Origin: a virus
Lineage: Duplodnaviria; Heunggongvirae; Uroviricota; Caudoviricetes
Virus record (IMG/VR): IMGVR_UViG_3300042256_000013
Location: 256,001 to 320,000 of that record
DNA: 64,000 bases
Direction: 5' to 3' (one strand)
Shown: positions 1-64,000 of the stretch, piece after piece
Position numbering within the stretch: the stretch's first letter is position 1
How the letters are laid out: each line of letters opens with the position of its first letter
Position numbers and translations under genes: made by a program
Notes under the pieces: generated by a model
The model's database searches: none
The model's input: the letters and a program-made list of their open reading frames with translations, nothing else
Told to the model about the DNA's origin: nothing

Positions 1-1665
1 TCCATAACCAGTGGTATGCAATGGATTGGTACTTATGCTCCTATTTCTGATGATATTGATCCACCTGTCGATTCTGCATATACTAAACTTCCAGCACCAA
101 TTACGGATAATGCTGGTCAGTACTACATTGTACGCGGAATTTATGATTCTGCTGTAACACACTTTAGAGCAAATAACCCAACTACTGATACAGTAATATT
201 CACTCCAGCAAACCCAAGTTCTGCGGGTAACTGGATTCAAATAAAATATTATATTGATACAGATCCAACAAATGTTGCAAATAAAATAGTGGTTGCTGCT
301 TTTGCAAGAATAGTAACTGCAAGTATTCCAGGTACAGGCCATGAAGGATTAATGTCTCTTGCATCAAATGATGCTAATTTAACTGCTGCATTTACTGCTA
401 TTGTTGATAAAACTGCTGAACTTGGTATTACTGATGGTGACTGGATTATAAGTACTGGTACAACGAATGTTCGTCTTCGCCAAAATCGTGTAAGTGTAAG
501 TGCAGGTGCAGTATCATTTGATAGAACGTTTATGACCTCATCAAATAGACCTCTTACAAATAGTTCAGGTACAGTTCAAACTATCATTGATAGTCTCATT
601 GTGCAAGGATTACGCCGCACAGGAGACTCCATGTACAACGATGGAACTACTGGTGCAGGTAGATTAGGGTTAACGTATGGTACTGCTGGTGCTCCATCTA
701 TAGCGTTTAACAGCAATCCATTCGATGCTATTACTAATCCAGGTGTTAATCCTGCGTTATGGTCTGATACCAGTACTGGTATATTCCATCCAGCTAATGG
801 AAGCATTGGTTTATCTTCAAATGGTACTGAACGTTTACGTATTAGTCCTACACAAATGATATTATATCCAGTGACTACAAGTACTAATGCTGTACCAAAT
901 ATTTTATTCTCAGCTACTGGTAATACCGTATTAGGTATGAATGTAAAATCTAATACAATTGATTTTGTTAGCAATAGTGCAGTGAACGTTAGTTTAGCAC
1001 AAGGATTAAGCACATTCAATGGAAATGTGGTTGTTACTGGCAATACTACTTTAGGTGATGCTGGAACGGATACATTGACTGTAAATGCCGCAAGTACTTT
1101 TGCTGGAACAACACTATTCAATAATGCAACTAATAGATTTGCATTAGGTGCAGTTCTATCTAGTGCAGCTACTTTGTCATTTGAAGGTACGAGTACTGCT
1201 ACAATGGCTAAAACTGCCACGGAATTACGTTTCAATATGGGTTCTTTTGATGATGTGTCAATATATGATGGTACAACATTAAGGACTAAATTTAATCGTT
1301 ATGGTATTCAGTTGCCAGTTCTTAACCCAATTGATAATGCAGTTGGTGTGAATGGCATGATTGCTTATAGTACAGAAAGGAATGCAGTAATTCAAAAATC
1401 TAATGGAACTTGGACAACTGTTGGTTCTGGTGGAGGAATTGCAACATCATTTACTGTTGCAAATTGGGTTTTAAGTGGTTCTAATTATACATATACCATA
1501 TCTAATCCAAATATTCAAATGGTTTATGTTCAAGAACTGTCTGGTTCTAATTATACACATGTTGAAGTTGATTCAATAGTTATTTCTCCAACTAATGCTG
1601 TACTTTCAGTACCAGCTTCTCCAGATTTACGATTTGCAGGACGAGTTATAGTACAATATCAATAA
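1..1665 (+). CDS. Virion structural / tail-fibre-like protein, 5'-truncated by the window edge
   Basis: The frame is open from base 1 (TCC ATA ACC AGT GGT ATG), so the gene probably starts upstream. Rich in T/S/G/N with beta-strand character and fibre-type motifs (GTAGAPSIAF, STGIFHPANGSIGLSSNGTERLRI). Ends at a bidirectional terminator. Confidence 0.65.
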   Translation, partial: SITSGMQWIGTYAPISDDIDPPVDSAYTKLPAPITDNAGQYYIVRGIYDSAVTHFRANNPTTDTVIFTPANPSSAGNWIQIKYYIDTDPTNVANKIVVAAFARIVTASIPGTGHEGLMSLASNDANLTAAFTAIVDKTAELGITDGDWIISTGTTNVRLRQNRVSVSAGAVSFDRTFMTSSNRPLTNSSGTVQTIIDSLIVQGLRRTGDSMYNDGTTGAGRLGLTYGTAGAPSIAFNSNPFDAITNPGVNPALWSDTSTGIFHPANGSIGLSSNGTERLRISPTQMILYPVTTSTNAVPNILFSATGNTVLGMNVKSNTIDFVSNSAVNVSLAQGLSTFNGNVVVTGNTTLGDAGTDTLTVNAASTFAGTTLFNNATNRFALGAVLSSAATLSFEGTSTATMAKTATELRFNMGSFDDVSIYDGTTLRTKFNRYGIQLPVLNPIDNAVGVNGMIAYSTERNAVIQKSNGTWTTVGSGGGIATSFTVANWVLSGSNYTYTISNPNIQMVYVQELSGSNYTHVEVDSIVISPTNAVLSVPASPDLRFAGRVIVQYQ

Positions 1666-1666
1666 C

Positions 1667-1694
1667 AAAAAAGGGAGCCAATGGCTCCCTTTTT
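1667..1694. terminator. Bidirectional rho-independent terminator between convergent genes
   Basis: A6-GGGAGCCA-a-TGGCTCCC-T5 hairpin flanked by A and T tracts. Confidence 0.85.
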
Positions 1695-1697
1695 ATT

Positions 1698-1949
1698 TTA
1701 AATCAGATATGAGGTAATCCAATTAGAATGTTTAAGATATTTTTCATCTTTAGTATACAATTTTTGATTATAATTATTCAAAGAATCATCTTTATAATGT
1801 ACATATGCTATTGACGAATGTTCTAAACATGCATAAATGTCACGGATTAATTCATTTTCAGTACTATAGGTTTCTTTATCAACCATATAAGCAACTGAAG
1901 AAAAGCATGGATTATCATGCTTGAAATGTACAGTTACTGTAAAATTCAT
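1698..1949 (-). CDS. Hypothetical protein
   Basis: 83 aa ORF whose start overlaps the thyA stop. Confidence 0.6.
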   Translation of the reverse strand: MNFTVTVHFKHDNPCFSSVAYMVDKETYSTENELIRDIYACLEHSSIAYVHYKDDSLNNYNQKLYTKDEKYLKHSNWITSYLI

Positions 1950-2878
1950 TATACCGCCATTGGTGCTTTAATAGTTGCATCTGGATTATAATTTTCTAAT
2001 CTAAATGATTCCATAGAAAAATGTTCAATATTAGTAATACTCTTATCAATCCATAATGTAGGCATTTCACGTGGTTCACGTGCAAGTTGTTCTTGTACTG
2101 CATCAACATGGTTCTTATAGATATGAACATCTCCGCCCATCCACACAAACTCACCAACTTCTAGGCCACATACTTGTGCTAACATATGAGTTAGTAATGA
2201 ATAAGATGCGATATTGAATGGAACACCTAAGAATAGGTCACAACTACGTTGATATAGGATACAAGATAGTTTACCATCATTCACAAAGAATTGACTAAAA
2301 CAGTGACATGGAGGTAGTGCCATTTGATCAAGTTCACCTACGTTCCAAGCAGTCATAATATGACGGCGAGAATCAGGATTATTCTTTAATCCGTCAATTA
2401 GTACTTGAAGTTGATCAGTACTTCGACGCATAATAACACCACTAAATTGTGTAGCTTCAACTACAACATAGCCTTTTTCTTTCAAGACATTAATTTCATC
2501 AATATTTTGTGCAAATTGATAATCTACCCAATTACGCCATTGTTTCCCATACACTGGACCTAAATTGCCATCTGAATATCCTAGAGCGATACCTTGATTC
2601 AGGTAGTTGTCTGTCCAGATAGTTTTTTTAGATTCATCACGTGTACCGTATAATATTTCTGCAAGGCGGCGTTCATCATGTGAACCTTCAACGAACCAAA
2701 TAAGTTCAGAAGCCATTGCTTTCCAGGCTAGACGTTTAGTTGTTGGAGCAGGAAAATACTCAGAAAGGTCAAAACGCATTGTTTCACCCATGAGTTTAAT
2801 AGTACCTACACCAGTTCTGTCAGTACTTTCAGTACCAGATTCAAGAACTTTTTTGTATAGATCGTGTAATTGTTGCAT
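1949..2878 (-). CDS. thyA: Thymidylate synthase
   Basis: Motifs DRTGVGT, GPVYGKQWR, MALPPCH (catalytic Cys), YQRSCDLFLGVPFNIASY and the C-terminal KAPMAV. Confidence 0.97.
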   Translation of the reverse strand: MQQLHDLYKKVLESGTESTDRTGVGTIKLMGETMRFDLSEYFPAPTTKRLAWKAMASELIWFVEGSHDERRLAEILYGTRDESKKTIWTDNYLNQGIALGYSDGNLGPVYGKQWRNWVDYQFAQNIDEINVLKEKGYVVVEATQFSGVIMRRSTDQLQVLIDGLKNNPDSRRHIMTAWNVGELDQMALPPCHCFSQFFVNDGKLSCILYQRSCDLFLGVPFNIASYSLLTHMLAQVCGLEVGEFVWMGGDVHIYKNHVDAVQEQLAREPREMPTLWIDKSITNIEHFSMESFRLENYNPDATIKAPMAV

Positions 2879-3209
2879 TCTCTTTCCTTAGAGCATAATT
2901 TTCTTCTTTTAGATGTTTAATAGTACTTTGAAAGTTTTGAATTAGTTGTTCAATATTACTTTGCAATTCACTAATTTGAGTATCAGCTTTATCTTGTTCT
3001 TCTTCTATAGTATTTTGTATTTCCCGCTTTATTTCTATTTCATGTTCAGATAATAAATTTTCAATATGGTCTGAATGTGCTTTTTCCAAATCGTCGATAA
3101 TCTTGTCGTACATATCTTTAGTACTTTCAGAACCAGATTCAACGCCTTCTTCATATCCAATATCATATCCAATATCATATTGATCCGGTATTTCTACTAT
3201 ATTTGTCAT
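2841..3209 (-). CDS. Acidic coiled-coil hypothetical protein
   Basis: 122 aa ORF with an N-terminal YDIG-YDIG-YEEG repeat and heptad-like C-terminus. Confidence 0.65.
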   Translation of the reverse strand: MTNIVEIPDQYDIGYDIGYEEGVESGSESTKDMYDKIIDDLEKAHSDHIENLLSEHEIEIKREIQNTIEEEQDKADTQISELQSNIEQLIQNFQSTIKHLKEENYALRKENATITRSIQKSS

Positions 3210-3796
3210 TAGATAAATTTCGCTTCAAATGCTCTCAAGTCTTCTTCAGTAGCACGTCTTGTGCCAATACCTGTCCATCTACCATGAGGTGCAGGAACTG
3301 ATTCAACTTGAATGAATTGTTTTGTTTCGTTACAGTACTTATATACTAACTTATCCATAATATCGAAATGATAGATTTCTTTTTCTTCTGATGGTAAGTC
3401 TAAGTACATTTGTACAGCCCATGCAGTTCCACCGTCTAATTGAGTAGGTGATACTAATTGACCAATGGTATATACACGTTCAGTACAGTAAATTTGATAG
3501 CTATTACGAGCTAATAGGTTGTAAACATATCCCCAACGCGGAACACTACGCCCTAAAGCTTTATTTGCTTGTTTGAGTTGTGAACCTACTTCATCAGAAG
3601 TAAGCATTTCAAATGGGAGTTCAAGTACTGTTTCAGGTTTTACATGTGCTTTATGACCTTTAAATGAAAAATGGACTTCATCATGTCCATTTTCCTCAGC
3701 CCACAAACCAAAAAGGCGGTCTGCACCCGCAGCACCGCCACTAAAACATACATTTTCGAACTCTAACAACATCTCTTGGAGATCATTGCGAGTCAT
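3209..3796 (-). CDS. SLOG-superfamily (DprA/YspA-like) nucleotide-binding protein
   Basis: SGGAAGAD glycine loop, RN and GGTAWAV motifs typical of SLOG proteins. Confidence 0.65.
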   Translation of the reverse strand: MTRNDLQEMLLEFENVCFSGGAAGADRLFGLWAEENGHDEVHFSFKGHKAHVKPETVLELPFEMLTSDEVGSQLKQANKALGRSVPRWGYVYNLLARNSYQIYCTERVYTIGQLVSPTQLDGGTAWAVQMYLDLPSEEKEIYHFDIMDKLVYKYCNETKQFIQVESVPAPHGRWTGIGTRRATEEDLRAFEAKFI

Positions 3797-4091
3797 CTTC
3801 TTTATCTTCCAGTTTAGATAATAATTCTTTTATACTATCGTCTTCTAAAGAGAAACTTGTTTCCAGAGCCGCTAGAATAACGGCTGCTGATTTAATAAGA
3901 GATTGACGGAATTCGTCAAACGAAACATGTTTATCAGGTCTAGAAGCACTTTCAAATAAGTAGTACCCAGCTAAACCTGTCCAATCATTCTTCGTTTTAA
4001 GATGATCTGCTAAAGTATTTGGGTTGCTCATTTGTTTCAAGCGTTCTTCAATTATTAACTGAAGAATTTCTTCCCTACTAACTTTTGACAT
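3783..4091 (-). CDS. Possible MazG-like all-helical NTP pyrophosphatase
   Basis: EERLKQ ... DW ... FRQSLIKSAAVILAALE pattern resembles small phage MazG-like proteins. Confidence 0.4.
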   Translation of the reverse strand: MSKVSREEILQLIIEERLKQMSNPNTLADHLKTKNDWTGLAGYYLFESASRPDKHVSFDEFRQSLIKSAAVILAALETSFSLEDDSIKELLSKLEDKEDDSQ

Positions 4092-4768
4092 TATTCACCT
4101 TTACGTTCTTTCAATGCTTTTTTGACAAGTTCTACTGCTTTAGCTTGAGAAATACCTTCTGGTAGTTCAAGATACAAAGTAGTTTTAACTTCTTCGTCTT
4201 CAACTGCTGTATCAGATGGTAGTACAATTGCTTGTGCTTGTGGACGTAGACTTGGATCTAAGTTATAAGCACGTTCGCGATTTTCACGAGCTAGAGTTTC
4301 ATACTTAACTGCTTCTTCAAGCAGACGAGAAACAATAGTACCTTGTTCTGGATATTGAACAGTGCTTTCTTGTTGTTCGTAAGGATTGAATGCTTTAACA
4401 GTACCGTCTTGTACAACTGCACTTTGGTTAATTTCTTCATTCAGTACGTTTAGAGGAATCTTATTAGTTCCACCAACATGCATATCAATATCTAGGGTAT
4501 TTTGTTTACGGATATATCCCATACGGTGAAGTACGGAAAGCATGTTCCCACCTTCTAGGGTTCCGATTTTGTCCATTACATCCCATAGTTCAATAGAACT
4601 TTGACCACGACCGAGAACAAGCTCAGCAACACGGTTAGAATAAACTTCAGGGAGAGAGTCACGATAGACTACTAGGCAATGGGTTGGGTCATTTTCTAAT
4701 TGACGCCATACTACGAAAACACGAGAACCAGTACTACGAACTACACCACAATGACGTACAATACTCAT
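4091..4768 (-). CDS. Hypothetical protein
   Basis: Start moved to the ATG at 4768 (MSIVRH...), which has a GGAG RBS, rather than 4810. Confidence 0.7.
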   Translation of the reverse strand: MSIVRHCGVVRSTGSRVFVVWRQLENDPTHCLVVYRDSLPEVYSNRVAELVLGRGQSSIELWDVMDKIGTLEGGNMLSVLHRMGYIRKQNTLDIDMHVGGTNKIPLNVLNEEINQSAVVQDGTVKAFNPYEQQESTVQYPEQGTIVSRLLEEAVKYETLARENRERAYNLDPSLRPQAQAIVLPSDTAVEDEEVKTTLYLELPEGISQAKAVELVKKALKERKGE

Positions 4769-4769
4769 A

Positions 4770-5003
4770 TTATTCTCCTTCTTTCGCAGAAGCATCTTGC
4801 TCAGCAGCACGAGCTTCTTGATCTGCTAGAATAGCAGCAGAGAAATCCTGGAAACGGGATACGATAGGTGCAACATCAGCAAGTTCTTTAACATTAAAGA
4901 TCCCACGCTCAATTGCTGCTTCCATGATTTTTGTAGCATTGATAATATCAATGAATTCTAGTTGTGGTCCAACTACGGTTTCGTCTTGAATTTGATTGCT
5001 CAT
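4770..5003 (-). CDS. Hypothetical protein
   Basis: ATG at 5003 (MSNQIQ...) preceded by GGAG and by the promoter at 5037-5065. Confidence 0.7.
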   Translation of the reverse strand: MSNQIQDETVVGPQLEFIDIINATKIMEAAIERGIFNVKELADVAPIVSRFQDFSAAILADQEARAAEQDASAKEGE

Positions 5004-5036
5004 TATATACACTCCATGTATTTTTGAATTATCTAT

Positions 5037-5065
5037 ATTATACCACAAAATTGCGGTACGTTTCA
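5037..5065 (-). promoter_or_regulatory. Phage promoter class TGAAAC-N17-TATAAT (copy 1)
   Basis: Minus strand reads TGAAAC gtaccgcaattt TGTGG TATAAT. The same architecture occurs at 7990, 24500, 31767 and 41399. Confidence 0.8.
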
Positions 5066-5107
5066 AATATTTGTAAGGTCGCCATCCTGACGACCTTCTA
5101 TTTAGTA

Positions 5108-6487
5108 TTACGCCACTTGTTGTTCAAGTTCGTAATGAACTGTCACACCAAATGGAGCTTCTACTTTAGGGTTTGAATGAATTACAAACATTGTATCACA
5201 ATAATTTGGATCACCCCATGAACCCCACGGTTCACCATCCGTAAACATTACTAATTGTTTTGGACAGTAATCATCTTCTTTCATGAAATCCCATACTTTA
5301 GTAAACAAAGTACCGCCACCACCACGAACAGGATACTGAAGAATTTGCTGTTCTTGTCCAGTGGTATAATCATGTACTTCATAAATTTCAGTGTCAAATG
5401 TGAGAACACGAATTTTGAATTGTGAGAATTGTTTGGTCATACCATAAACTTCTGATAAGAAGTCTTGTAGCCATTCTGCACGAATACTACCAGATGCATC
5501 TAATGCAATGCAAATATCAATATCCTCATCAGGTTTCATTCCTGGATAGATAGGCATACCATATCCAATTCCATTAGACCATGAACGTCTGTTCGGCATC
5601 ATGTATGTTACATCATTTTTAATCAAAGAACGTAAAGTACGGTTCAATTTAGAACGCCAGTCAATCTTAGGTTCTTTGAATTCCTGAACCATAGCACGAA
5701 TTTCTGGAGGTGCACCATGTGCTGCCATAGCTGCGTTAATCATTGCATCTTTAAATGCATCCATGAATCCTTCGAGTTCTTCTGGTGAAAAACTTGGAAA
5801 TTCATCATTTTCATCATTTTCACCATCACCATCACTATCATCACCAGATGATGGATCTCCTTGTTGTGGAATATCATGTTGGTCTAATGTTCCACCACCA
5901 GTACCTCGTCCACCGCCGCCAGATTCTTCTTGTTCCTTACGATCCATAAGAATGTTGTAAATTTCTTCAGCAGGCATCTTATCAAATTCAGGAGAGAATA
6001 ACCAAGATTTACGAATTTCACCAAGTGCTTTATCTCGTTCAATAATTTGGTTAATTGCATAATCAGCAGCTTTATTCCACATCTTAGCATCTCGTGTACC
6101 TTTACGCAAGAAGTGATTATAAGCACAATGAAGAATTTCATGACATACTGCTGCGATTAAATTTTGTTGAGTTAATCCATTCAGAGCATCATTAATTTGT
6201 TCAGTAGTGAGATCATCAATACTATCACGAAGCCTGTCTTCGTATTCTTGACGGCGAGTTGGGTCTTCGATACCCATAATAAACTCTACATTGTAGTAAA
6301 GATGCTTACCATCTACTGCCAATGTACGGCACCAAGTATTATTAGCAATTGGTTCTAATTGAGCAGCCAGTACCCCAAAGAATGGACATGCCATAATCAT
6401 AGTTGTACGTGCTATAATAAGTTTTTCAAAGCATTCTTTTGCTAATGTTTCAGATACTTCATATCTAGTGTATTTTTTTGTTGTCAT
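5108..6487 (-). CDS. Metallopeptidase-like (HExxH) plus VWA domain protein, MoxR partner
   Basis: TLAVDG, HEILH zinc motif, WNKAADYAIN, acidic linker, VWA MIDAS DASGS, GGGT and TDG. Adjacent to an AAA+ ATPase. Start set at MTTKK (GAGG RBS). Confidence 0.85.
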   Translation of the reverse strand: MTTKKYTRYEVSETLAKECFEKLIIARTTMIMACPFFGVLAAQLEPIANNTWCRTLAVDGKHLYYNVEFIMGIEDPTRRQEYEDRLRDSIDDLTTEQINDALNGLTQQNLIAAVCHEILHCAYNHFLRKGTRDAKMWNKAADYAINQIIERDKALGEIRKSWLFSPEFDKMPAEEIYNILMDRKEQEESGGGGRGTGGGTLDQHDIPQQGDPSSGDDSDGDGENDENDEFPSFSPEELEGFMDAFKDAMINAAMAAHGAPPEIRAMVQEFKEPKIDWRSKLNRTLRSLIKNDVTYMMPNRRSWSNGIGYGMPIYPGMKPDEDIDICIALDASGSIRAEWLQDFLSEVYGMTKQFSQFKIRVLTFDTEIYEVHDYTTGQEQQILQYPVRGGGGTLFTKVWDFMKEDDYCPKQLVMFTDGEPWGSWGDPNYCDTMFVIHSNPKVEAPFGVTVHYELEQQVA

Positions 6488-6503
6488 AAAATCCTCAAAT
6501 AAC

Positions 6504-6525
6504 AAAAGGGGCATAAGCCCCTTTT
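6504..6525 (-). terminator. Rho-independent terminator
   Basis: AAAAGGGGC-ATAA-GCCCCTTTT hairpin. Confidence 0.7.
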
Positions 6526-6532
6526 ATGTTTA

Positions 6533-7870
6533 TTACTTCATTGTACGTGCTTTACGCAGTAGTGGACCATATTCTGTTACAAATGGTTTGAATGCTGGCA
6601 CTTCTTTGTAGGTAATATTTACATCCGCATCCGTAATAGCACGAATAGCATGTACAATAAGTTCCTTTTGAGTATCAGAGAATTGAGAATCAAGGAAATG
6701 AACAAAACTGGTGCAGTACAAGCACCAAGTTTCTAATGGCAATGTACCATTTTGTTTATGTTCAAAGAACTCAATAATTTTCTGAGTCAGGCTAAGTGTA
6801 ATGAAGTAGTTTTTAGAAATTTCTTTCTTATGATCACCAAAATCAGTTACAATACCATTCAGAATATCCATTACATCTGGTAAATCTGCCATGTTTTTGA
6901 TATAAGTTACATATTCAATACCCGCAGTACTACCAACACGCCCTGCAACCATTGCTTTATATACAGGTTCAGAAATATTTTTACTATCACGAACATTCTG
7001 AATATCAGATACGCGAGTCCATGAACGAGGGGATGAACCACCACTATGACTAGTATCTTTAGGACTTAGGGTATTAAAGTGTTTTGTACCAGTTTGGTGA
7101 ATAAATGCGATAGTACCTGGATTTAAACGTGATGGAATTGCAAAGTTGTTAAGCCAGTCAACGTAATCTGCAATCATTTCTACGTGAGTCATACGGTCAC
7201 GCAGTGGAGTTGCTAGTGAGAAGGTTACACCACCATCAGTTTCACGGTTCCCTGCTGCCAAAATCAGGCATTGTTGAGGAAGAATAAGTTCACCAACGCG
7301 ACGATCAAGAATTAACTGATAAGAAGCAGCCTGAACAATTGGCATTGCGGAGTTAATTTCGTCAAAAATGATTACACCTTGCCAATCACGAGGAAGTTGT
7401 AACATTTTAGGAGCAGCCCAAACAACACCAGTTTCTTCAGTATATCCTGGATTATCAGCAAGTTCATGTTCAAGAATTACTTTTCCAGTACGACTCAAGA
7501 AGTACTTGACAGGAATTGGAATACCACGAAGATCAGAAGGTTCAACTTGAGAAAGACGGAAGTCAATAAAGTTCTCATCCTGATCAAGCAATGAATCGTT
7601 AAATGCATTGTAATCAGCCATTGTTACCATTTCATCATCTGGATCTTCAGCACGTTGTAGCATATATGCTAAACGGTTAACGTTATTTTTCCTTAGAGGA
7701 TAGTTTTCATTTGCATATTGCAAAGCAATTGCAGATTTACCAATACCAGGGGAACCCCAAATCATCAAACTATCTCGGCATAAATCTGCCACCATCATAG
7801 CTTCCATAATTTGAGAAGGTTTTAAATCATAGTTTAGAACATTGTTTTCTTTTGCGACTGCGTTACTCAT
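6533..7870 (-). CDS. MoxR-like AAA+ ATPase
   Basis: Walker A GSPGIGKS, DLRGIP, Walker B IIFDEIN, AAGN sensor, LRDRM and SPRSW. Confidence 0.9.
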   Translation of the reverse strand: MSNAVAKENNVLNYDLKPSQIMEAMMVADLCRDSLMIWGSPGIGKSAIALQYANENYPLRKNNVNRLAYMLQRAEDPDDEMVTMADYNAFNDSLLDQDENFIDFRLSQVEPSDLRGIPIPVKYFLSRTGKVILEHELADNPGYTEETGVVWAAPKMLQLPRDWQGVIIFDEINSAMPIVQAASYQLILDRRVGELILPQQCLILAAGNRETDGGVTFSLATPLRDRMTHVEMIADYVDWLNNFAIPSRLNPGTIAFIHQTGTKHFNTLSPKDTSHSGGSSPRSWTRVSDIQNVRDSKNISEPVYKAMVAGRVGSTAGIEYVTYIKNMADLPDVMDILNGIVTDFGDHKKEISKNYFITLSLTQKIIEFFEHKQNGTLPLETWCLYCTSFVHFLDSQFSDTQKELIVHAIRAITDADVNITYKEVPAFKPFVTEYGPLLRKARTMK

Positions 7871-9798: not shown

Positions 9799-11496
9799 TT
9801 AATCTTCAGTATTTAATGATTTTAAAATATCTGATGCTTCCTTTTGCTGACCAGAAAGTAGAATATCAGCAGCTAATAGTGACAAATCATCACCACGACT
9901 TAGTAGTACTACAATTTTACGAGCAAGAGGGCTTGATTTAATCTCATTAGCAAGTCCTTGCAATGGATCATTACCTTCCTGAGAATTTTCAGAAGAATTC
10001 TGTTCAGGTTGGTCTTCATTAGAACCAACGTTATCATTACTGTTAGTGTTATCAACTGACGCATCTTGCGGTTCACCTTGTGCATTATCTTGTTCAGAAC
10101 TTGCATCACCAGATGATTGTTGTGATAAATTTGATAATACTTTTTTGGACGTATCTGGTGGAAGTAATTTTCCATTATCAGAAATAAAACGTTCACCACC
10201 TACATAACGATAAGTAATACCTTTTTTAGATTTAAATTCTTGACCAATTTTTACTGGAGAAGAACTATTAAATTTAGAAATTTCTGATTGTGCAGTACGT
10301 TCCAACATCGGAACTGAAGAACTATTAATAGGCTGTTTTGTTTTAGCATTAAACCATTGACCATTTTTCTTAAAATAGCTATTACCTTTTCTGGATTTAT
10401 ACAAATATCCATTTGGAACTTCAGTACTGGAATTTTCTGGTTCAGAACTTTCAGAACTTGATGAATCTTGAGTTGGTTCTTCAGTTGAAGAAGCAGGTTG
10501 TTGATCATCTTGAGAAGTATTTGGCTTTGGATTAGAATCTGAATCTAAATTAGTATGATTATTAGCTGCATAATCATCTTCTGTATTATTTGATTTTGAA
10601 TCCTGCCACTCTTTATGTTTTTGAATAATTTTAGCAGTTTGTTCAGGAGATAATTTATTTCCTGATGCATCAAGAAAATCAGTACCATTGAACACATATA
10701 CTTTATTATTTTTGTCTTGAATACGTTGACCAACTTTAATAGTACTATTTGATGAAGAATTAGTTCCTTGAGAATTTGTTGAACTTGAATCATTTGAAGA
10801 TGGTTCAGATTGTTGTTTTTCAGCATTTGGATTTTCATCCAGCCAATCTTCAACTTTATTCAAAAACTTATCACTCATTCGTTTTCCATCATCGGAAACC
10901 CAATTCATACCAGTATAGGTATAAGTCTTACCACCATATTGAATAGTACTGTTAACTGGATAACGATCCTGATTATTATATTTTTCAATATCTTTTATAG
11001 CATCAGAATTCAAATCTGAACTAAATTGTTTATCAGTTATTTTACCTTCTGAACCATACCATGAATTATCTGACTTACTATAAGTATATTGACCATTAGG
11101 TAGATAAAATTTATCCGGTATAGAAACTTTAGAAGTGTCGCCACGAGTGAAATTTTGAAATGCTCCATTATCTGCTTCAACCAGCTTTTTAACACGAGTA
11201 TTCATACTTTCTGAAAGTAGTGTACCATCTAAAGAAAAATTATTACGACCGATATAAGTGTATTTCGATTCATTTATAGCATATTTCTTGCCGATTTGCA
11301 AGGAATTTGTTTCGTTATGTTCAGCAATTTGACGAAGTGCTGATTGATTCATTTTGAATGTATGAGCATTTTCTACAATCTTCATGGTTTCACAATTGAA
11401 CCATGAACCTTCGAGGTACATATATTCTGTACCTCTGTTGGACGTATACACATAATTATTTGGAATCGAATTGTTATTATCTATAGATTTAAACAT
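9799..11496 (-). CDS. Modular repeat protein, putative virion internal protein
   Basis: Several repeated ~45 aa beta modules (YxSxxGxxY...GxWFN; IG...YxYxG..F...GxxL) separated by S/N/Q-rich linkers. Confidence 0.55.
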   Translation of the reverse strand: MFKSIDNNNSIPNNYVYTSNRGTEYMYLEGSWFNCETMKIVENAHTFKMNQSALRQIAEHNETNSLQIGKKYAINESKYTYIGRNNFSLDGTLLSESMNTRVKKLVEADNGAFQNFTRGDTSKVSIPDKFYLPNGQYTYSKSDNSWYGSEGKITDKQFSSDLNSDAIKDIEKYNNQDRYPVNSTIQYGGKTYTYTGMNWVSDDGKRMSDKFLNKVEDWLDENPNAEKQQSEPSSNDSSSTNSQGTNSSSNSTIKVGQRIQDKNNKVYVFNGTDFLDASGNKLSPEQTAKIIQKHKEWQDSKSNNTEDDYAANNHTNLDSDSNPKPNTSQDDQQPASSTEEPTQDSSSSESSEPENSSTEVPNGYLYKSRKGNSYFKKNGQWFNAKTKQPINSSSVPMLERTAQSEISKFNSSSPVKIGQEFKSKKGITYRYVGGERFISDNGKLLPPDTSKKVLSNLSQQSSGDASSEQDNAQGEPQDASVDNTNSNDNVGSNEDQPEQNSSENSQEGNDPLQGLANEIKSSPLARKIVVLLSRGDDLSLLAADILLSGQQKEASDILKSLNTED

Positions 11497-41398: not shown

Positions 41399-41427
41399 AT
41401 TATAGCACAAAAATTACAATCGTTTCA
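41399..41427 (-). promoter_or_regulatory. Phage promoter class TGAAAC-N17-TATAAT (copy 5), firing into the structured non-coding locus
   Basis: Minus strand reads TGAAAC gattgtaatttt TGTGC TATAAT. The nearest downstream ORF start is more than 600 bp away. Confidence 0.75.
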
Positions 41428-41434
41428 TTTATTT

Positions 41435-41719: not shown

Positions 41720-41728
41720 TTTGGAACC

Positions 41729-46536: not shown

Positions 46537-46657
46537 GTTTTTTCCTTTTTGAAAAATCCATATCATACACAATAACAGGAACAACTTTTCTATTTTGTCT
46601 TCCTTGGGATTGTATATTTTGTAATGAATTTGAATTATAAATTTTTTTCATATAGTT

Positions 46658-57292: not shown

Positions 57293-57758
57293 AATCTTTA
57301 CCTTTTACCAGTACTCTTTGATTTTCTGAACCTCTGAATGGAAGTTTAAGGTTCTTGAGTTCTTCAACAAATTTACCATCAACAAGTACGTCAACGTAAT
57401 TCAGAACATCATGAGCATGATTTTCTAGTACTTCTTCCAGTGTATAACCAGTCCAGCACCAAATATTTTTTGTTGGGAATTCTTCTTTCACAATCCTACA
57501 CAAATCAAGAACAGTACTGATATTTTTAGTCATCAGTGCATCTCCACCAAGTAGAGTTAAACCCTCTACATAAGGCTTAGAGAGTTCTAATAGGATTGTA
57601 TTAATTTGTTCTTCCCCAAATGGTGTTCCTGAACGATAATCCCAAGCTTCTTCATTGAAACAACCAGGACAACCGTGACTACAACCTGATACATATAAAC
57701 TGACACGAACACCAGTGCCATTTATAAGGTCGTCTTTTACTATTGTTTGATAATTCAT
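57285..57758 (-). CDS. nrdG: Anaerobic ribonucleotide reductase activase (radical SAM)
   Basis: NGTGVRVSLYVSGCSHGCPGCFN (CxxxCxxC), GLTLLGG and FRGSENQR. Confidence 0.95.
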   Translation of the reverse strand: MNYQTIVKDDLINGTGVRVSLYVSGCSHGCPGCFNEEAWDYRSGTPFGEEQINTILLELSKPYVEGLTLLGGDALMTKNISTVLDLCRIVKEEFPTKNIWCWTGYTLEEVLENHAHDVLNYVDVLVDGKFVEELKNLKLPFRGSENQRVLVKGKDYE

Positions 57759-58207
57759 TAATAATTGCTCATAAGCAGTACCTGAGTATCAAAGATTTCA
57801 TCGTAGTACGTAATACTTTCCAGAAATTCTATTGCAGATTCCCGGTCTTTGAACCTCATAAATTTGTCACCATCATCACAACCAACGAACATAACAACAA
57901 ATTTGTTTTCATTGTAGTTCTTAATATAGTCATCACGATAAATTTCATGATGTAGTACTGAATTATAACTGGTTTTTGGAGATAACGTTTCTTGCATGTA
58001 GTATTCTTCTTCAGAAGTCATCCAATCTTCCCAAATATGATAATGATAGCAAGGAACCACTCGCCTATGTTCAGCTTCTGGATGCATATTTTCGCATGAA
58101 TAATAACTTATTGCTCGAAAATCTTCATCAAATACTGGAAGGTAGCCTAACAACCGATCTGAATTGTAGCAGAATGTCCAATTCACATTAACTTTATCGT
58201 GTATCAT
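57758..58207 (-). CDS. Hypothetical protein
   Basis: 149 aa ORF between nrdD and nrdG. Confidence 0.6.
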   Translation of the reverse strand: MIHDKVNVNWTFCYNSDRLLGYLPVFDEDFRAISYYSCENMHPEAEHRRVVPCYHYHIWEDWMTSEEEYYMQETLSPKTSYNSVLHHEIYRDDYIKNYNENKFVVMFVGCDDGDKFMRFKDRESAIEFLESITYYDEIFDTQVLLMSNY

Positions 58208-58210
58208 GAT

Positions 58211-58723
58211 TTATTCCTTAGAGAATATTGGTACATAAGAGTTTATTTTGGTACAATATATCAACGCATCGCGAGTACTTCCACTAAAATTACTATCATC
58301 AATGATAATAGAATTTTGTTTAACTACAGTTCTCTCGAACAGATGTTTAATGTATTTGTCACGTTGTGTTGCTTTCAACATATTAATTTTAAATGTTGAA
58401 CCCATTTCTTCCATACGTGATAAGTGACTACGTAATTCAGCTTTTTGAAGACCCAGCGTAGGTGCAAGGTCTTTAAAGTACTGAATATCGTTTTTCTTTG
58501 CAATCCTTATATCTCTATCTAATAATTGCACCACTTTCAGTACAAAATCAGAAGAACTTTCTGGAATGATAATAGTACTTTTCTTCTTTACATATGGCCT
58601 AAAAGCACAACTGATTGTATGAATCATTGTATTGCGATTTTCGCCTAAAGAATAGCCATATTTTTCTTTTAGAGCAAAATATAGCAGCATGTTTTCACGT
58701 TTTGTCAAGTCGAATGGAATCAT
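58211..58723 (-). CDS. Possible phosphoribosyltransferase-like protein
   Basis: IPESS and IIIDDSNFSGST resemble the PRPP-binding loop (hhhDDhhxTGxT). Confidence 0.5.
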   Translation of the reverse strand: MIPFDLTKRENMLLYFALKEKYGYSLGENRNTMIHTISCAFRPYVKKKSTIIIPESSSDFVLKVVQLLDRDIRIAKKNDIQYFKDLAPTLGLQKAELRSHLSRMEEMGSTFKINMLKATQRDKYIKHLFERTVVKQNSIIIDDSNFSGSTRDALIYCTKINSYVPIFSKE

Positions 58724-58724
58724 A

Positions 58725-59354
58725 TTAGATATTCATAAGGTTAAAGATAACGCCACTTCCTGCATAGAATGGCTTAATTTTTCCAGCAATATCATCTAAA
58801 GCATAGAAAGCAGGATACGTATCGCCGTTGATAGTTATAAAATAGTTCCCAAAAGACAAATCATGAACATGGTTCAATGTTGTAACTTGGTCTACATCGT
58901 TACTGTACTTTGTAAAGTAAAATTCATCATCACCCATATATGAAGTGAATTCGTCGATGTTTCCTTTGCGAACTGGTTTAGATGCAACGTATAGTATCTT
59001 ACCTTCACCATGATCTTTAGTTACAATTGTTGGTTTGATCTGAGTGAACTTACTAACTACTAATTCAATATGGTCAGCAGACTGATTGTAAGTATAATCA
59101 GAAACATGTTCCATGTAATAATCAAGTAATTCATATAACCCATTTTTCGCTTCAAGTAATAGATTAATTTGTGCTATTGATTCTTTAGCTTTATCTAAGA
59201 AATAAGAATTGTCTTCAATTTTATCGAAGGTTTCCAAAATATCTGGAATATTACCTCGAATACTTTCTACTGTAATTTTTCCTTCGCCAATTCCTGTAAT
59301 TAATTTAGATAATGTTTCTGCTACTTTTTGTTTACTTTGAGTTAAATTTTCCAT
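58725..59354 (-). CDS. Hypothetical protein
   Basis: Start set at MENLT, directly after the nrdD stop. Confidence 0.6.
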   Translation of the reverse strand: MENLTQSKQKVAETLSKLITGIGEGKITVESIRGNIPDILETFDKIEDNSYFLDKAKESIAQINLLLEAKNGLYELLDYYMEHVSDYTYNQSADHIELVVSKFTQIKPTIVTKDHGEGKILYVASKPVRKGNIDEFTSYMGDDEFYFTKYSNDVDQVTTLNHVHDLSFGNYFITINGDTYPAFYALDDIAGKIKPFYAGSGVIFNLMNI

Positions 59355-59355
59355 T

Positions 59356-61161
59356 TTAGCTTCCGTGTTTGATTCTTTGTATAACTTCTTGTTGTTTACC
59401 AGTATTGAAAGGTCTACTATTCGGTGCACTAAGATAACCAGAAACTCTACGAATAACTGACATAGTACCTTCTTCTCGGTTATCACATTGTGGACAATGG
59501 AACCCGACTTTATCTACCGAAAATTCACCTTCAAAATCGCACTTATAACATTTATCGACAGGTTGATTAATCCCAAAATATGGAATACGGTCATACGCAT
59601 AATCAATTAGTACTTCTAAGGCTTTCAAATTGTTAGAAAGATTTGGAGTCTCTACATAACTGATGTTTCCACCATTACTTAAGTACGCAAAACTTTCTTC
59701 GTAATCAAATTTACTGAAAGGAGATGATTCAATCCATACTGGTTGGTGGAATGAATTTGTTATAAAATCTCTCTTTAGTACATTTGGGTATTTTTCTTCT
59801 ATTGCTTTCGCAAATTTATAACATAAGCTCTCTGCTGGCGTTCCATATAAACTAAATGCGATAGTACTTTCATCTTTGAATTGTTCACATTTGTATTTCA
59901 TATAGTGCAAGATGGATTTACAATAATCCTTACTTAACTGTCCAAGCATAATTTCAGAACATTCAGCTAATCCAACATATCCAATACTGATACTTGCGTA
60001 TCCATTATAGAATAATTGATCAATTGTATCATCAGCATTCAATCTAGCAATAGCACCTTCCATAAACATAGTAGGGTTTTGACGAGCTTTCATTGTTTTC
60101 AATCGTTCTACACGATTCATTTGTGCTCGGTAAGCCATTGTCATGTGATAATCCAATTTACCGAAGAATTCACCATCGGATTTAGATTCAAGAGCAAGTA
60201 ATGGGAGATTAATAGATACTACACCTAAGTTAAATCTTCCATCATATTGTTCAGTACCTTCATTTTCCCATTTTCCAAGGAATGAACGACAACCCATAGG
60301 GGAAACGGCAATAGAAGTACTGCCAGTTACTTTCTTGTTTAATGGTACTGATACGAAATCTGGATAAATTCTCTTAGCACTTGTTTTAAGTGCTTGCTGT
60401 TTAAGGTCATAATTAGGATCAGACTCTTTCATGTTCACACCATCTTCTAAGAAGAAGACAACTTTAGGAAACACTGGAGTACTGCCATCTACACCTAAAC
60501 CTTTCTCATGTACTTTTAAGTACGAATCAGTAATCATCTTACCAAATTTAGAGGTGTTTAGACCCATTGTAATAGTTACAAACGGGGTTTGACCGTTACT
60601 GCTTGTGATGGTATTAACCTGGTACAGAAGTGCTTGCATAGCGTCGTACACCTCTTTCTGGAGGGTCTTCTGTACGTATTCATCCGGTAGACCGAATTCT
60701 TTTTGTTGCTCCAGAAGCTTGTTATAGGACTTCTGAACGTATGGTTCAAGACCAAAATCAATATGTGCAAGTGTTTGACCACCGTATTGACTTGCGGAAA
60801 CTGCCAGTACTATTTGTGTTAGTACAGTACTTGCTACACCAATACTATTAGGTGTACCAACTTGTGCATTACCAATCTTGAAACCATTTTCTAACATATC
60901 TCTGTAATTAACTAAACAACAGTTAGTCAAAGGGCTTATGAAATAGTCTAGATCGTGTATATGACCATATCCATTCTTGTGCCAAAGCATAAGTTCTTCT
61001 GAGATTTCATCCTCTGCATAATGCTTAGATAAAATACCTGCTAGTAAGTCACGATGCGTGTTTACAATCTTCGCATCCTTATTAGCATTCTCATTCATTA
61101 TATCTTTATTACTTTGGTTTATTAGTGCGGATACATCATTAAACAGTCTATCGTTATTCAT
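59356..61161 (-). CDS. nrdD: Anaerobic ribonucleoside-triphosphate reductase (class III), no ATP cone
   Basis: NENANKD, HIHDLD, NCCL, QYGGQ, GQTPF, PMGCRS, TPAESLC, TNSFH, two CxxC zinc pairs and the glycyl-radical motif RVSGYL. Confidence 0.97.
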   Translation of the reverse strand: MNNDRLFNDVSALINQSNKDIMNENANKDAKIVNTHRDLLAGILSKHYAEDEISEELMLWHKNGYGHIHDLDYFISPLTNCCLVNYRDMLENGFKIGNAQVGTPNSIGVASTVLTQIVLAVSASQYGGQTLAHIDFGLEPYVQKSYNKLLEQQKEFGLPDEYVQKTLQKEVYDAMQALLYQVNTITSSNGQTPFVTITMGLNTSKFGKMITDSYLKVHEKGLGVDGSTPVFPKVVFFLEDGVNMKESDPNYDLKQQALKTSAKRIYPDFVSVPLNKKVTGSTSIAVSPMGCRSFLGKWENEGTEQYDGRFNLGVVSINLPLLALESKSDGEFFGKLDYHMTMAYRAQMNRVERLKTMKARQNPTMFMEGAIARLNADDTIDQLFYNGYASISIGYVGLAECSEIMLGQLSKDYCKSILHYMKYKCEQFKDESTIAFSLYGTPAESLCYKFAKAIEEKYPNVLKRDFITNSFHQPVWIESSPFSKFDYEESFAYLSNGGNISYVETPNLSNNLKALEVLIDYAYDRIPYFGINQPVDKCYKCDFEGEFSVDKVGFHCPQCDNREEGTMSVIRRVSGYLSAPNSRPFNTGKQQEVIQRIKHGS

Positions 61162-61211
61162 AAGACACTCCTTGTCAAATTGTTAGGTAGTTTATTTAAA
61201 CCACTTAAAAT

Positions 61212-61239
61212 AAAAATACCCCATATGAAGGGGTATTTT
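61212..61239. terminator. Terminator-like hairpin upstream of nrdD
   Basis: AAAATACCCC-ATATGAA-GGGGTATTTT. Confidence 0.65.
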
Positions 61240-61241
61240 CT

Positions 61242-61255
61242 TTGATCTAGATCAA
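61242..61255. promoter_or_regulatory. FNR binding site (perfect consensus)
   Basis: TTGAT-CTAG-ATCAA, ~80 bp upstream of the nrdD start. Confidence 0.75.
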
Positions 61256-61271
61256 GGTTTTGGGACTTTGG

Positions 61272-61388
61272 TTAACGTTTGTTCAGGAAGCTACAGAAGT
61301 CCAAAACAAATAATATTGCCATTACTCCGATTGAACTTAGTGTTACAACGTAGAACCAAAACAACGCCATCAAAATATCATGCCACAT
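61272..61388 (-). CDS. Small membrane peptide (38 aa), missing from the ORF track
   Basis: Hand translation MWHDILMALFWFYVVTLSSIGVMAILFVLDFCSFLNKR, with an AAGGAG RBS. Confidence 0.6.
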   Translation of the reverse strand: MWHDILMALFWFYVVTLSSIGVMAILFVLDFCSFLNKR

Positions 61389-61390
61389 GA

Positions 61391-61948
61391 TTAGACTCCT
61401 TTAGCTTGAAATCCGTATGTTTTGCTTAGTATTTCAAGAATTATTGTTGGCATTTCTTCGTGAGTATATTCACGCATATCGATGAATGGAATATTCATCT
61501 CTTCGAGATTTTTCACAAAGATTGCATCAAGCTCTTTAGCTTCTTCTAAAGTCTGAGATCGACCGTACTGATCATATTCAGGCTTACGAGGAAGTAAGAA
61601 TACAATATTATCGTACTGCTGATATAATTCGAATGCAATTTCAGTACTGATATTATCATAATCATCATAGAATTCATTGTACATGATACCATTCAGTAAT
61701 GAAGCATCAGATACAACAAAATCCACCTTTCCATTTAAACGGAATAGGCGGTGATTCTGTTGAGCAGTAATAAGAACCTGATCTTGCATTGCCATTTTAT
61801 TTTCATCATAAACATAGTCTTTGATTACTTCAGTAACAATTTCAACTTTCTGTTTAGATTTAAGTTTAAGTGCTGCAAATAGGCCAGCAGCAGTTGTTGA
61901 TTTACCACAACATGGTCCACCAACAAGATTAATAACAACTGTATTCAT
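61391..61948 (-). CDS. P-loop kinase/ATPase (NadR/Ttd14-like)
   Basis: GGPCCGKST, E..K, DA.L and GR.QT..EA. Start set at MNTVV after GGAGG. Confidence 0.8.
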   Translation of the reverse strand: MNTVVINLVGGPCCGKSTTAAGLFAALKLKSKQKVEIVTEVIKDYVYDENKMAMQDQVLITAQQNHRLFRLNGKVDFVVSDASLLNGIMYNEFYDDYDNISTEIAFELYQQYDNIVFLLPRKPEYDQYGRSQTLEEAKELDAIFVKNLEEMNIPFIDMREYTHEEMPTIILEILSKTYGFQAKGV

Positions 61949-62211
61949 TTTAAGCCTCCATGTAACCCAATGAATCGTCTGTACCACATTAATAGTGGCC
62001 CATTAAAATCTTCATTATATTTTGAACTTCTTAATTTATTATGTATAGAAATTTTAAATTTGAAGTTTTGTACCGTTGAATATGTATTTTCTTCTTTATC
62101 TAATAGAATAAGTTCAAATAACAGTTTAACGGTTTTCAAATACATTTCTGATTCTCCACCTAATTCGAATATTGCAATAATATCATCTAAACATTCACGA
62201 GGTGTTTTCAT
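61945..62211 (-). CDS. Hypothetical protein
   Basis: Start set at MKTPR. Confidence 0.55.
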   Translation of the reverse strand: MKTPRECLDDIIAIFELGGESEMYLKTVKLLFELILLDKEENTYSTVQNFKFKISIHNKLRSSKYNEDFNGPLLMWYRRFIGLHGGLK

Positions 62212-62212
62212 A

Positions 62213-62407
62213 TTACTTACGCCAATCATTTTTAGATGCTTCGTAGTTTTTTACCCATTCATCTATTGCTTCAAGAAATGGAATAACTTCTTCTTCCATT
62301 TGACGATTTAGTTTTTTACGTTCTTCTGCACGGTGGCGAGATAAACAATCATTAATCAGTTTATCAGTAGTTTCTTCATCCAGTACGATAAGATTTTGGT
62401 TACTCAT
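62213..62407 (-). CDS. Hypothetical protein
   Basis: 64 aa ORF; GGAG RBS. Confidence 0.6.
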   Translation of the reverse strand: MSNQNLIVLDEETTDKLINDCLSRHRAEERKKLNRQMEEEVIPFLEAIDEWVKNYEASKNDWRK

Positions 62408-62424
62408 TTTGTTCTCCGAAGATT

Positions 62425-63045
62425 TTATTGGGTTCGTGCTGCTACTTTTGCTGGATAATAAATGTATTGATATTCAGACATACGCTTAGTCCAACATTCC
62501 CTGCAATTATTTCCACCAGTGTAAGACCGTGGAGGTAAATGATTTACCCTGCAAGTGTCACAAAACATTTGCTCACGTTCTAATTTTTCTAAAGAATAAA
62601 TGTTACCAACTTCAGTAATAACAGAACGGTCAACATTTAGGTCAGTTGCTAATGCCCTATTGGTAAATTGAGGATAATAAATCATGATATGACGAATTTG
62701 TTCAAGTGTCAGTACTGATGTAATTCGATTCCATACATTTTCAGACATTGGTTTACCATGTTTACGTACTAAAACTTTACGTAAACTTGATGAAACTTCT
62801 GGAAATGGCTTACGATATACTGCATATTCGTCAATATCATTTAGCATTTGTAGATCTACACCATAATATGATGCAAGAAACTCATTACTTGGAATACGTG
62901 ATTCTACATGAAGGCGAACCAAATTAGTATGTTTAGCAACTAATTCAACTGTTTTCTTACTAATACCCAAGTATTCAGCAATAAAAGTTACAGTTTCGTG
63001 TGGATAACGAGACACAATTTCGTTAAGTTGTTCATTATTGATCAT
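62425..63045 (-). CDS. HTH plus zinc-finger putative DNA-binding protein
   Basis: HTH-like IAEYLGISKKTV and LATDLNVDRSVI; C-terminal CDTC...CREC. Confidence 0.6.
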   Translation of the reverse strand: MINNEQLNEIVSRYPHETVTFIAEYLGISKKTVELVAKHTNLVRLHVESRIPSNEFLASYYGVDLQMLNDIDEYAVYRKPFPEVSSSLRKVLVRKHGKPMSENVWNRITSVLTLEQIRHIMIYYPQFTNRALATDLNVDRSVITEVGNIYSLEKLEREQMFCDTCRVNHLPPRSYTGGNNCRECWTKRMSEYQYIYYPAKVAARTQ

Positions 63046-63361
63046 AACTAATATCCTTTAGAGCTTTAATTACTACACCAACTTTAGGTGCTTTTTGAAT
63101 AGCTATAAAATTGTAATAATAAGATTTTACATGTTCATTATAGCATGAAGTACACATATTGGTATTCAAAATTAGTTGACTAACCAAGTTTCTATCACAC
63201 TTCCAACATATTCTTGCAACTCGTGGAACAACTTTATTAACTTTATATTTCTTACGTAAGTACCTATATTGCTCAGTACTTAAATTAAATTTCGATTTAA
63301 AGTTCAACCCGTTATAAAATTTAATTATTTTACCGAGATGTTCTTCATTAGGTATATTCAA
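63035..63361 (-). CDS. Small zinc-finger protein
   Basis: CWKC...CTSC; basic. Confidence 0.55.
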   Translation of the reverse strand: MNIPNEEHLGKIIKFYNGLNFKSKFNLSTEQYRYLRKKYKVNKVVPRVARICWKCDRNLVSQLILNTNMCTSCYNEHVKSYYYNFIAIQKAPKVGVVIKALKDISYDQ

Positions 63362-63677
63362 TTTCTTTTACTCCGAATGCCTCTATTGCTTTTTCACATA
63401 TGGGGCATGGTTTAGCTGATAATGGATTTCCATTTCTATCTATTCTGGCAATCAGAAGTTTATGAACTTCTTTTTTAGCTGCAATTAATGCTGCTATTTC
63501 TGCATGAAGGAATATTGATTCTGGTTTCCCTGCCAGTACTGCGAAATGTTTTTGAAGTGGATGAGAGCACTCGTAATCATTAGTTCTAATTGCAAGTACT
63601 CTACCTTTTTTGTCAAGTGCACACGCAATTATTTTATATTTCTTACGTGTGTTTTTCACTTGAGTAGGACGTGGCAT
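63348..63677 (-). CDS. Zinc-dependent cytidine/dCMP deaminase-fold protein
   Basis: HAE and PCPIC motifs. Start uncertain (63677 or 63740). Confidence 0.8.
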   Translation of the reverse strand: MPRPTQVKNTRKKYKIIACALDKKGRVLAIRTNDYECSHPLQKHFAVLAGKPESIFLHAEIAALIAAKKEVHKLLIARIDRNGNPLSAKPCPICEKAIEAFGVKEIEYT

Positions 63678-63678
63678 T

Positions 63679-64000
63679 TCATGAAGTATGTGTATCAGCT
63701 TTGTGATCTTCATCCCTGATACCATATTTCTGTACGTCATATCCTAAACGTATGCTTTCCTTTGCATTGTAAATATCTGCATCAACGCAGATGATCTCCA
63801 GTTCAACCTCTGAATGCTGTTCCATTGTTAAACTTGGATCTTGAATTTTCTTTTTAAGTACTGGCAACAATTGTTCCATTTCTTCCAAATCAGCCTGAAG
63901 TTTTTCAATTTCATAATCTGGAAGCATTTTGATTTCACCATCATCCAGAATAGAAGCTTCAACAAATTCATGTGATGCCATCCATTCGTCGAAATTGAAA
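63679..64000 (-). CDS. Hypothetical protein, probably 5'-truncated at the window edge
   Basis: Acidic helical ORF running toward the end of the window. Confidence 0.5.
   Translation of the reverse strand, partial: FNFDEWMASHEFVEASILDDGEIKMLPDYEIEKLQADLEEMEQLLPVLKKKIQDPSLTMEQHSEVELEIICVDADIYNAKESIRLGYDVQKYGIRDEDHKADTHTS

Follow-up and report, generated by a model that had tools for sequence, protein, structure and literature searches.

AGTACT is a highly iterated palindrome of RaK2-like jumbo phages, and its excess does not follow a neighbouring N4-cytosine-type methyltransferase

The window and its AGTACT sites

The window considered here is a 64,000-nucleotide stretch of phage DNA, corresponding to bases 256001-320000 of a complete 371,104-bp genome (G000; IMG/VR record IMGVR_UViG_3300042256_000013), and it holds two features that a preliminary description had joined in a single hypothesis. 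The first is the 6-bp palindrome AGTACT, present in 150 dispersed copies between positions 119 and 63862 (2.3 per kb, mean spacing 428 bp), and the second is a minus-strand gene (46990-47850) for an orphan DNA methyltransferase that was proposed to write a mark on these sites. The palindrome is in excess throughout a clade of jumbo phages, including relatives in which this enzyme was not found. The nearest records to the phage are Xanthomonas phage XbC2 and Erwinia phage Kaldavass (~83% nucleotide identity), followed by Pectobacterium phage CBB, Cronobacter phage GAP32, Serratia phage BF and Yersinia phage fHe-Yen9-04. These similarities place the phage among the RaK2-like jumbo myoviruses, near the genus Mimasvirus; its GC content is 36%, and ~87% of its genes are on the minus strand.

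In dinucleotide-preserving shuffles of the window, AGTACT occurs 17.0±3.9 times, with a maximum of 29. The whole genome contains 1,087 sites (2.9 per kb), ~10-fold over chance, the Markov expectation being 104, 216 and 453 for order-1, order-2 and order-3 models, respectively, and AGTACT is by a wide margin the top hexamer of the genome by z-score. The roughly 8-fold excess estimated in the preliminary description was therefore an understatement (150 versus ~17 in the window, 1,087 versus ~104 in the genome), and the positions that it listed are exact for 14 of 14 sites in bases 1-5000 and 19 of 19 in 57300-64000, the site at 119 having been overlooked. Coding sequences contain 971 sites, as compared to 253±13 when synonymous codons are shuffled within genes. 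The claim of enrichment had been made dependent on a codon- and dinucleotide-preserving null, and the excess survives it: a permutation that holds protein sequence, codon usage and dinucleotides constant gives 527±21 sites, versus the 971 observed. Both of these codon-aware nulls are conservative, because the codon usage that they keep has already been shaped by AGTACT.

All three coding phases are used genome-wide, with 489 sites read as Ser-Thr, 338 as Val-Leu and 141 as x-Tyr, and another 119 sites are intergenic; the phases assigned earlier to the sites at 451 (Ser-Thr), 2400 (Val-Leu) and 3334 (Lys-Tyr) are correct. The density is higher between genes (4.1 per kb) than within them (2.8 per kb). 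Spacing in the window is random-like, with a longest gap of 2,196 bp (4730-6926) against ~2,390 bp expected. Among the intergenic sites, that at 27555-27560 separates the Shine-Dalgarno sequence (AAGGGAG) of the minus-strand gene 27210-27551 from its ATG, and two others, at 40807 and 41099 (together spanning 40807-41104), lie within a gene-poor stretch at 40776-41728.

Codon and dipeptide usage

The pressure for AGTACT bends codon usage and even the dipeptide usage of the proteome. For instance, 62% of Ser-Thr dipeptides are encoded as AGT-ACT, as opposed to the 15% expected from codon usage, and the hexamer is present in 56% of eligible Val-Leu contexts and in 41% of K/Q/E-Tyr-(T-initial) contexts. 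At the level of the proteins themselves, Ser-Thr is over-used 1.5-1.75 fold relative to 1.0 for Thr-Ser, and Val-Leu 1.3-1.55 fold relative to ~0.95 for Leu-Val, in five of the five genomes analysed. The shift in log-odds of occupancy is ~2.2-3.2, from which the advantage of each individual site would appear to be weak, with a scaled strength of about 2-3. Lineage-specific genes carry more sites (3.3 per kb) than core genes (2.5 per kb). The idea that AGTACT-free genes are recent arrivals was ruled out, as no gene is significantly site-free and the longest gap fits random dispersal. Single-base variants of the word behave differently according to position, inner variants being near expectation and those altered at an outermost base being 1.6-6 fold enriched.

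Conservation and turnover of sites

Comparison with XbC2 (85% identity) indicates that sites are retained beyond the background. In coding sequence, AGTACT survives unchanged at 70% of its sites, as compared to 45% for coding hexamers overall, and in intergenic DNA at 78%, versus a background of 58%. At conserved residues, codons that lie inside AGTACT are kept unchanged more often than those that lie outside it, for AGT (.96 versus.85), ACT (.86 versus.70), GTA (.91 versus.73) and TAC (.88 versus.71), which corresponds to a 2-4 fold lower rate of synonymous change within AGTACT. Gains and losses of sites are balanced (261 versus 294). Against the more distant RaK2 (median 54% protein identity), ~21% of sites are kept in position and the density persists; where a Ser-Thr dipeptide persists between the two genomes, the partner genome encodes it as AGTACT in 66-78% of cases. 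Such retention, together with the continual creation of new sites, points to density as the quantity that is maintained.

Distribution among jumbo phages and outgroups

The word TCATGA, of the same composition as AGTACT, served as a control, and both were counted over whole records. The excess was found in all eleven RaK2-like jumbo phages counted, with 827-1,356 copies of AGTACT versus 129-187 of the control word: XbC2 (1105/186), CBB (1235/187), Kaldavass (1114/174), GAP32 (1011/169), BF (1072/152), Munch (850/149), XaC1 (1356/130), RaK2 (937/142), 121Q (903/134), fENko-Kae01 (941/150) and SD-2_S15 (827/129). Outgroups, in contrast, are depleted, as evidenced by PA5oct (15/40), Atu_ph07 (25/82), XacN1 (0/127), T4 (29/51) and the distant IMG/VR jumbo phage G003 (368,758 bp; 42/91). 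In Escherichia coli K-12 there are 400 copies in 4.64 Mb (0.086 per kb) versus 1,147 of the control word, making AGTACT ~34 times denser in the phage than in this bacterium. A literature search found no publication linking AGTACT to RaK2-like phages.

Phages are textbook avoiders of short palindromes, and avoidance is extreme in these same genomes, AGTACT being of opposite sign with its ten-fold excess. The purge was examined in the phage and its relatives XbC2, BF, RaK2 and XaC1, and the words removed (observed/expected) include GCATGC (0/48), CCATGG (0/47), GGATCC (0/35), GGTACC (0/32), GATATC (3/110), GACGTC (1/40) and GCGC (0/290). RaK2 tolerates some palindromes more, for instance GATATC (162/106) and GGTACC (49/25). 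The clade of 350-kb phages thus purges nearly all palindromes yet fills ~60% of the places that the code permits with AGTACT, altering proteins in the process.

A scan of IMG/VR for clustered AGTACT identified two further enriched elements, the proviruses G004 (31.8 kb; L281-L282) and G005 (29.5 kb; L283-L284), most other matches being tandem-repeat genes. The two are related to one another, with a lambda-type terminase and siphovirus-like structural genes, and have only a lysozyme-type domain in common with the jumbo phage. In both, AGTACT is the top hexamer (103 versus 11 expected and 85 versus 9 expected, ~9-fold) and is evenly dispersed. GCGC is also at zero in both proviruses, and is present in the outgroups G003 and PA5oct. 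A search for the host of G005 gave no match in complete E. coli genomes.

Flanking sequence and the resemblance to SlmA sites

Information in the flanks of AGTACT amounts to 0.22 bits at ±1, with G being disfavoured on the 5' side, and falls to ~0 bits farther out. The unit is therefore a bare and strict 6-bp palindrome, which would resemble recognition of the restriction-modification type and be unlike a long, degenerate operator. The flanks also bear on whether the sites could recruit SlmA, a nucleoid-occlusion factor of the host, and thereby keep infected cells from dividing. The SlmA binding site, GTGAGTACTCAC, has a core identical to AGTACT, with a strict requirement for G1 and T2 of each half-site, GTRAGY (PMC3020112), and the recorded hosts of the jumbo clade are mostly Enterobacterales. 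In the phage, however, sites with two or fewer flank mismatches number 8 versus ~27 expected, and G at -1 is found at 7% versus 17%. As their flanks depart from G1 and T2 and resemble those of SlmA sites less than chance would predict, the phage sites were rejected as SlmA-binding sites, and we consider recruitment of this factor to be very improbable.

The TSPPY methyltransferase and AGTACT

The gene at 46990-47850 (minus strand) encodes a 286-aa orphan beta-class methyltransferase of the N4-cytosine type, as had been proposed. The predicted protein has TSPPY at residues 45-49 and, close to its C-terminus, DPFGGSGTT, and it matches PF01555 (E=7e-36); its best solved relative is the N4-cytosine enzyme M.PvuII (E=4e-19), with an alignment over the full length. 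Four AGTACT sites (47043, 47152, 47359 and 47629) lie within the gene itself. AGTACT is also the word of the ScaI restriction-modification system, and the window encodes an N4-cytosine-type enzyme, as M.ScaI is; the candidate enzyme of the window, however, is absent from half of the enriched clade.

Close homologs are confined to 18 phage records, all Mimasvirus or Eneladusvirus, at 85-98% identity. Neither the TSPPY protein nor PF01555 was found in Munch, XaC1, RaK2 or 121Q, in a search where XbC2, the positive control, was matched, and no TSPPY enzyme was found in the AGTACT-rich proviruses G004 and G005. The distributions of enzyme and enrichment are therefore mismatched, with the enzyme-less relatives being as enriched as the carriers, and the METHYLTRANSFERASE question of whether the TSPPY enzyme is the cognate writer that explains the sites is answered in the negative by the 850, 1,356, 937 and 903 sites of Munch, XaC1, RaK2 and 121Q, respectively. 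Since four relatives without the gene are equally enriched, the TSPPY enzyme cannot be what maintains AGTACT. From the preliminary description, the part that stands is that of a genome-wide, DNA-level signal unexplained by coding in a phage that purges palindromes, as borne out by the strict null and the purge counts; the part that assigned its cause to the neighbouring m4C-type (N4-methylcytosine) enzyme does not stand, and this is the corrective outcome of the analysis.

A narrower role for the enzyme can be considered, in which it methylates AGTACT in the manner of M.ScaI and was acquired later, in the Mimasvirus/Eneladusvirus lineage, to protect ~1,000 sites from a ScaI-type host restriction enzyme, without having created the enrichment. 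M.ScaI is likewise an m4C enzyme, and the gene is conserved among the 18 related records. Furthermore, the purge of other palindromes shows the phage to be under strong restriction pressure, in which case ~1,000 unprotected AGTACT sites would be a liability. On the other side, half of the clade does without the enzyme, and no ScaI-labelled homolog, nor any informative name, is present among its best 120 relatives. Homologs at 50-59% identity are orphans located in phages or prophages, and no restriction partner lies in their neighbourhood, so that the specificity could not be read from homolog names or from neighbouring genes. A search for a palindrome 'released' from avoidance in carrier genomes gave no consistent candidate, and the ScaI-family endonuclease model (Pfam RE_ScaI) had no match, though this family matched no control genome either. 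A protective role is accordingly doubtful, and the simplest view of the TSPPY enzyme is that one sub-lineage gained an ordinary orphan methyltransferase of the anti-restriction kind. The second gene downstream of it (45286-46584, minus strand), beyond a 111-aa ORF at 46658-46993, encodes an RlaP-type nucleotidyltransferase (PF10127, a family of an RNA-repair pathway) that belongs to the clade-specific core.

Other methyltransferases and repair partners

Genes for two more orphan DNA methyltransferases lie in the genome outside the window. An orphan C5-cytosine methyltransferase (genome 103609-104448, minus strand) is present in the phage, CBB, RaK2 and 121Q, and is absent from XaC1, the most enriched of all genomes. 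The other is a Dam-like N6-adenine methyltransferase of 182 aa with an NPPY motif (genome 357848-358396, minus strand; PF05869), which was found in all nine of the enriched jumbo genomes checked (its own, CBB, RaK2, XaC1, 121Q, Munch, Kae01, XbC2 and fHe-Yen9-04) and in none of four non-enriched outgroups (PA5oct, Atu_ph07, XacN1 and G003).

On this pattern, the Dam-like enzyme might methylate AGTACT, with a dense methyl mark being selected for self-marking, for timing of early promoters or for strand discrimination. No other enzyme of this kind is seen in the clade-specific core, strict recognition of a hexamer fits an enzyme of the restriction-modification type, and a precedent exists in the orphan methylases associated with HIP1 (PMC4390886). 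The presence pattern, however, is a single phylogenetic event, and 89 genes of the phage share it, including those for a type II topoisomerase, helicases, PhoH and a PIN nuclease. Membership in the Dam family was rejected as a sufficient cause, as small phages bearing the closest homologs (43-49% identity) are not enriched, and many family members are annotated as GATC Dam enzymes. The enzyme was also not found in the AGTACT-rich proviruses. G005 carries an unrelated orphan methyltransferase of NPPF type (phrog_3820; L283:22-744), and none was detected across the 31.8 kb of G004. With neither a TSPPY nor a Dam-like enzyme in these proviruses, no single methyltransferase family follows AGTACT across lineages, and every model that relies on one cognate methylase is weakened, unless specificities have converged.

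A partner for such a mark is likewise missing. A private system of methyl-directed mismatch repair was discarded, with matches to MutH being at noise level only and containing stop codons, as was conversion of the Vsr type, for which near-cognate words are not depleted and a gene was not found. Taken with the distribution, these results make the Dam-like enzyme an unlikely writer of AGTACT.

AGTACT in early promoters

In each jumbo genome, the density rises to 6-7 sites per kb over a zone of 20-40 kb. In the phage this hyper-dense zone lies outside the window (G000:C1:1-24000), and equivalents are present in XbC2, BF, XaC1, CBB and Kae01, as well as at 220-244 kb in RaK2. The zone coincides with the terminal-repeat/early region, and in fENko-Kae01 its end falls at the 19.7-kb terminal repeat given in the annotation.

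Within this zone, sites paired at a distance of 20-21 bp form part of sigma-70-type promoters with the following arrangement: an A-tract, AGTAC-TTGACA/TTGCAA, N11, AGTACT, N, TATAAT. Of the two AGTACT sites, the first shares bases with the -35 element, and the second lies two helical turns away, directly next to the -10 element. At these places a symmetric binder, or methylation, would be expected to affect RNA polymerase. A strict form of the pattern recovers 46 elements in seven genomes, of which 45 are followed by a Shine-Dalgarno sequence and an ORF within 13-62 nt, whereas the control word in the same pattern gives 0 elements in the seven genomes. The published promoter tables of CBB list a different set of promoters, without the AGTACT architecture, and the AGTACT-bearing class of early promoter is apparently undescribed until now.

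Comparison with known iterated words

The closest parallel is HIP1 (GCGATCGC) of cyanobacteria (PMC4390886, PMC5861425), which is also a strict palindrome found once per few hundred bp in all frames and in intergenic DNA, conserved beyond background, accompanied by orphan methyltransferases in the same genomes, and of unresolved function. The preliminary description was right to cite it as a precedent, since AGTACT is far above Markov and codon-aware expectation in all frames and between genes, and is conserved beyond background. There are also differences. AGTACT is a hexamer of AT-rich phage genomes, as opposed to the octameric HIP1 of cellular chromosomes; AGTACT is not accompanied across lineages by any one methyltransferase family; and, unlike HIP1, AGTACT occupies fixed positions in early promoters and coexists with a near-total purge of other palindromes.

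A second group of comparisons is provided by Chi, KOPS, the Neisseria DUS and the Haemophilus USS, which share with AGTACT a genome-wide excess of a short word under weak per-site selection or drive, and which serve recognition by a DNA-handling machine and distinguish self from foreign DNA. These words, however, are asymmetric and orientation-biased and have known readers, whereas AGTACT is its own reverse complement and has symmetric flanks.

Selection for a DNA word or molecular drive

The pattern implies that either a reader of phage DNA or a molecular drive has gone unrecognised. Under the latter, AGTACT would have no function, and a context-specific bias of mutation or repair would both create and preserve it. 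The weak per-site strength (log-odds 2.2-3.2) and the high turnover at depth are consistent with such a bias, as is a density that peaks where constraint is lowest (intergenic 4.1 per kb, lineage-specific 3.3 per kb, core 2.5 per kb). Against this, the single-mismatch neighbours of AGTACT are not depleted, no Vsr homolog was found, and a host-wide bias is unlikely given that AGTACT is 3-fold below the control word in E. coli. In addition, the excess is common to two phage lineages that are unrelated and replicate with different machinery, and throughout the clade AGTACT holds the same register within early promoters. Drive without function is, on balance, an improbable account.

The reading that we favour, at roughly even odds (about 0.5), is that AGTACT is a clade-wide DNA word maintained by selection and read on duplex DNA by a symmetric factor, with early promoters as one site of action and the TSPPY enzyme as an ordinary orphan. 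AGTACT would then be the phage counterpart of a 'highly iterated palindrome', independent of the TSPPY methyltransferase. Given that the unit is confined to a strict 6-bp palindrome and that its flanks carry next to no information, the putative reader would be a factor of two-fold symmetry that recognises AGTACT on double-stranded DNA with a precision like that of restriction-modification enzymes, and it could be encoded by the phage or by the host. Each site would confer a small advantage. Lost sites are replaced, such that the density stays constant.

Several points weigh against this reading. No reader of AGTACT has been found. The spacers and -35 flanks of promoters are weakly constrained, and AGTACT could thus accumulate there under any genome-wide pressure. 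Convergence of the jumbo phages and the two proviruses within one host group would be conjectural, and sequence alone cannot formally separate selection from a site-specific conversion drive.

A more specific version would make AGTACT a private identity word. The ~34-fold density over E. coli would allow AGTACT to serve as a mark of phage DNA, and a reader could exploit it to tell phage from host DNA, whether for protection, transcription timing or genome handling, the word having arisen independently in the RaK2-like jumbo phages and in the small proviruses. We consider this version possible, at well below even odds. In practice, AGTACT may serve as a sequence-only marker for the clade and for long-resident as opposed to recently acquired DNA.

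Arrays and paired sites

Dam/GATC-regulated phage elements include the P1 pac site, with its clustered TGATCA/G hexamers, and Dam-sensitive promoters. They resemble the AGTACT system in having a 6-bp palindrome in promoters and in clustered arrays that is potentially read through methylation. In the case of the phage studied here, twelve tandem copies of the 10-bp unit AGTACTGGAT are found outside the window at G000:C1:19058-19173. Unlike the Dam/GATC elements, this AGTACT-bearing array is not conserved in relatives; it was not found in XbC2, CBB, BF or Kae01, and as a private feature of G000 it was rejected as a conserved pac- or iteron-like element. In the otherwise AGTACT-poor G003, where the word is rarer than the control word, nine copies are present in a tandem array of 13-bp period (G003:C1:144782-144897).

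Pairs of sites are found in other settings as well. In the window, two sites 18 bp apart (29871 and 29889, together spanning 29871-29894) flank the stop codon of the minus-strand gene 29882-31396, just upstream of an intrinsic-terminator hairpin, and 18 bp is one of the over-used spacings. In the early region (G000:C1:10108-10131), a pair with the same spacing forms an exact LexA-box consensus (CTGT-N8-ACAG). LexA boxes were discarded as a general explanation of 18-bp pairs, as only a handful exist, that at genome position 10108 being an example. In CBB, the published predicted rho-independent terminator Torf26 (10,171-10,208) has two AGTACT sites within the arms of its hairpin.

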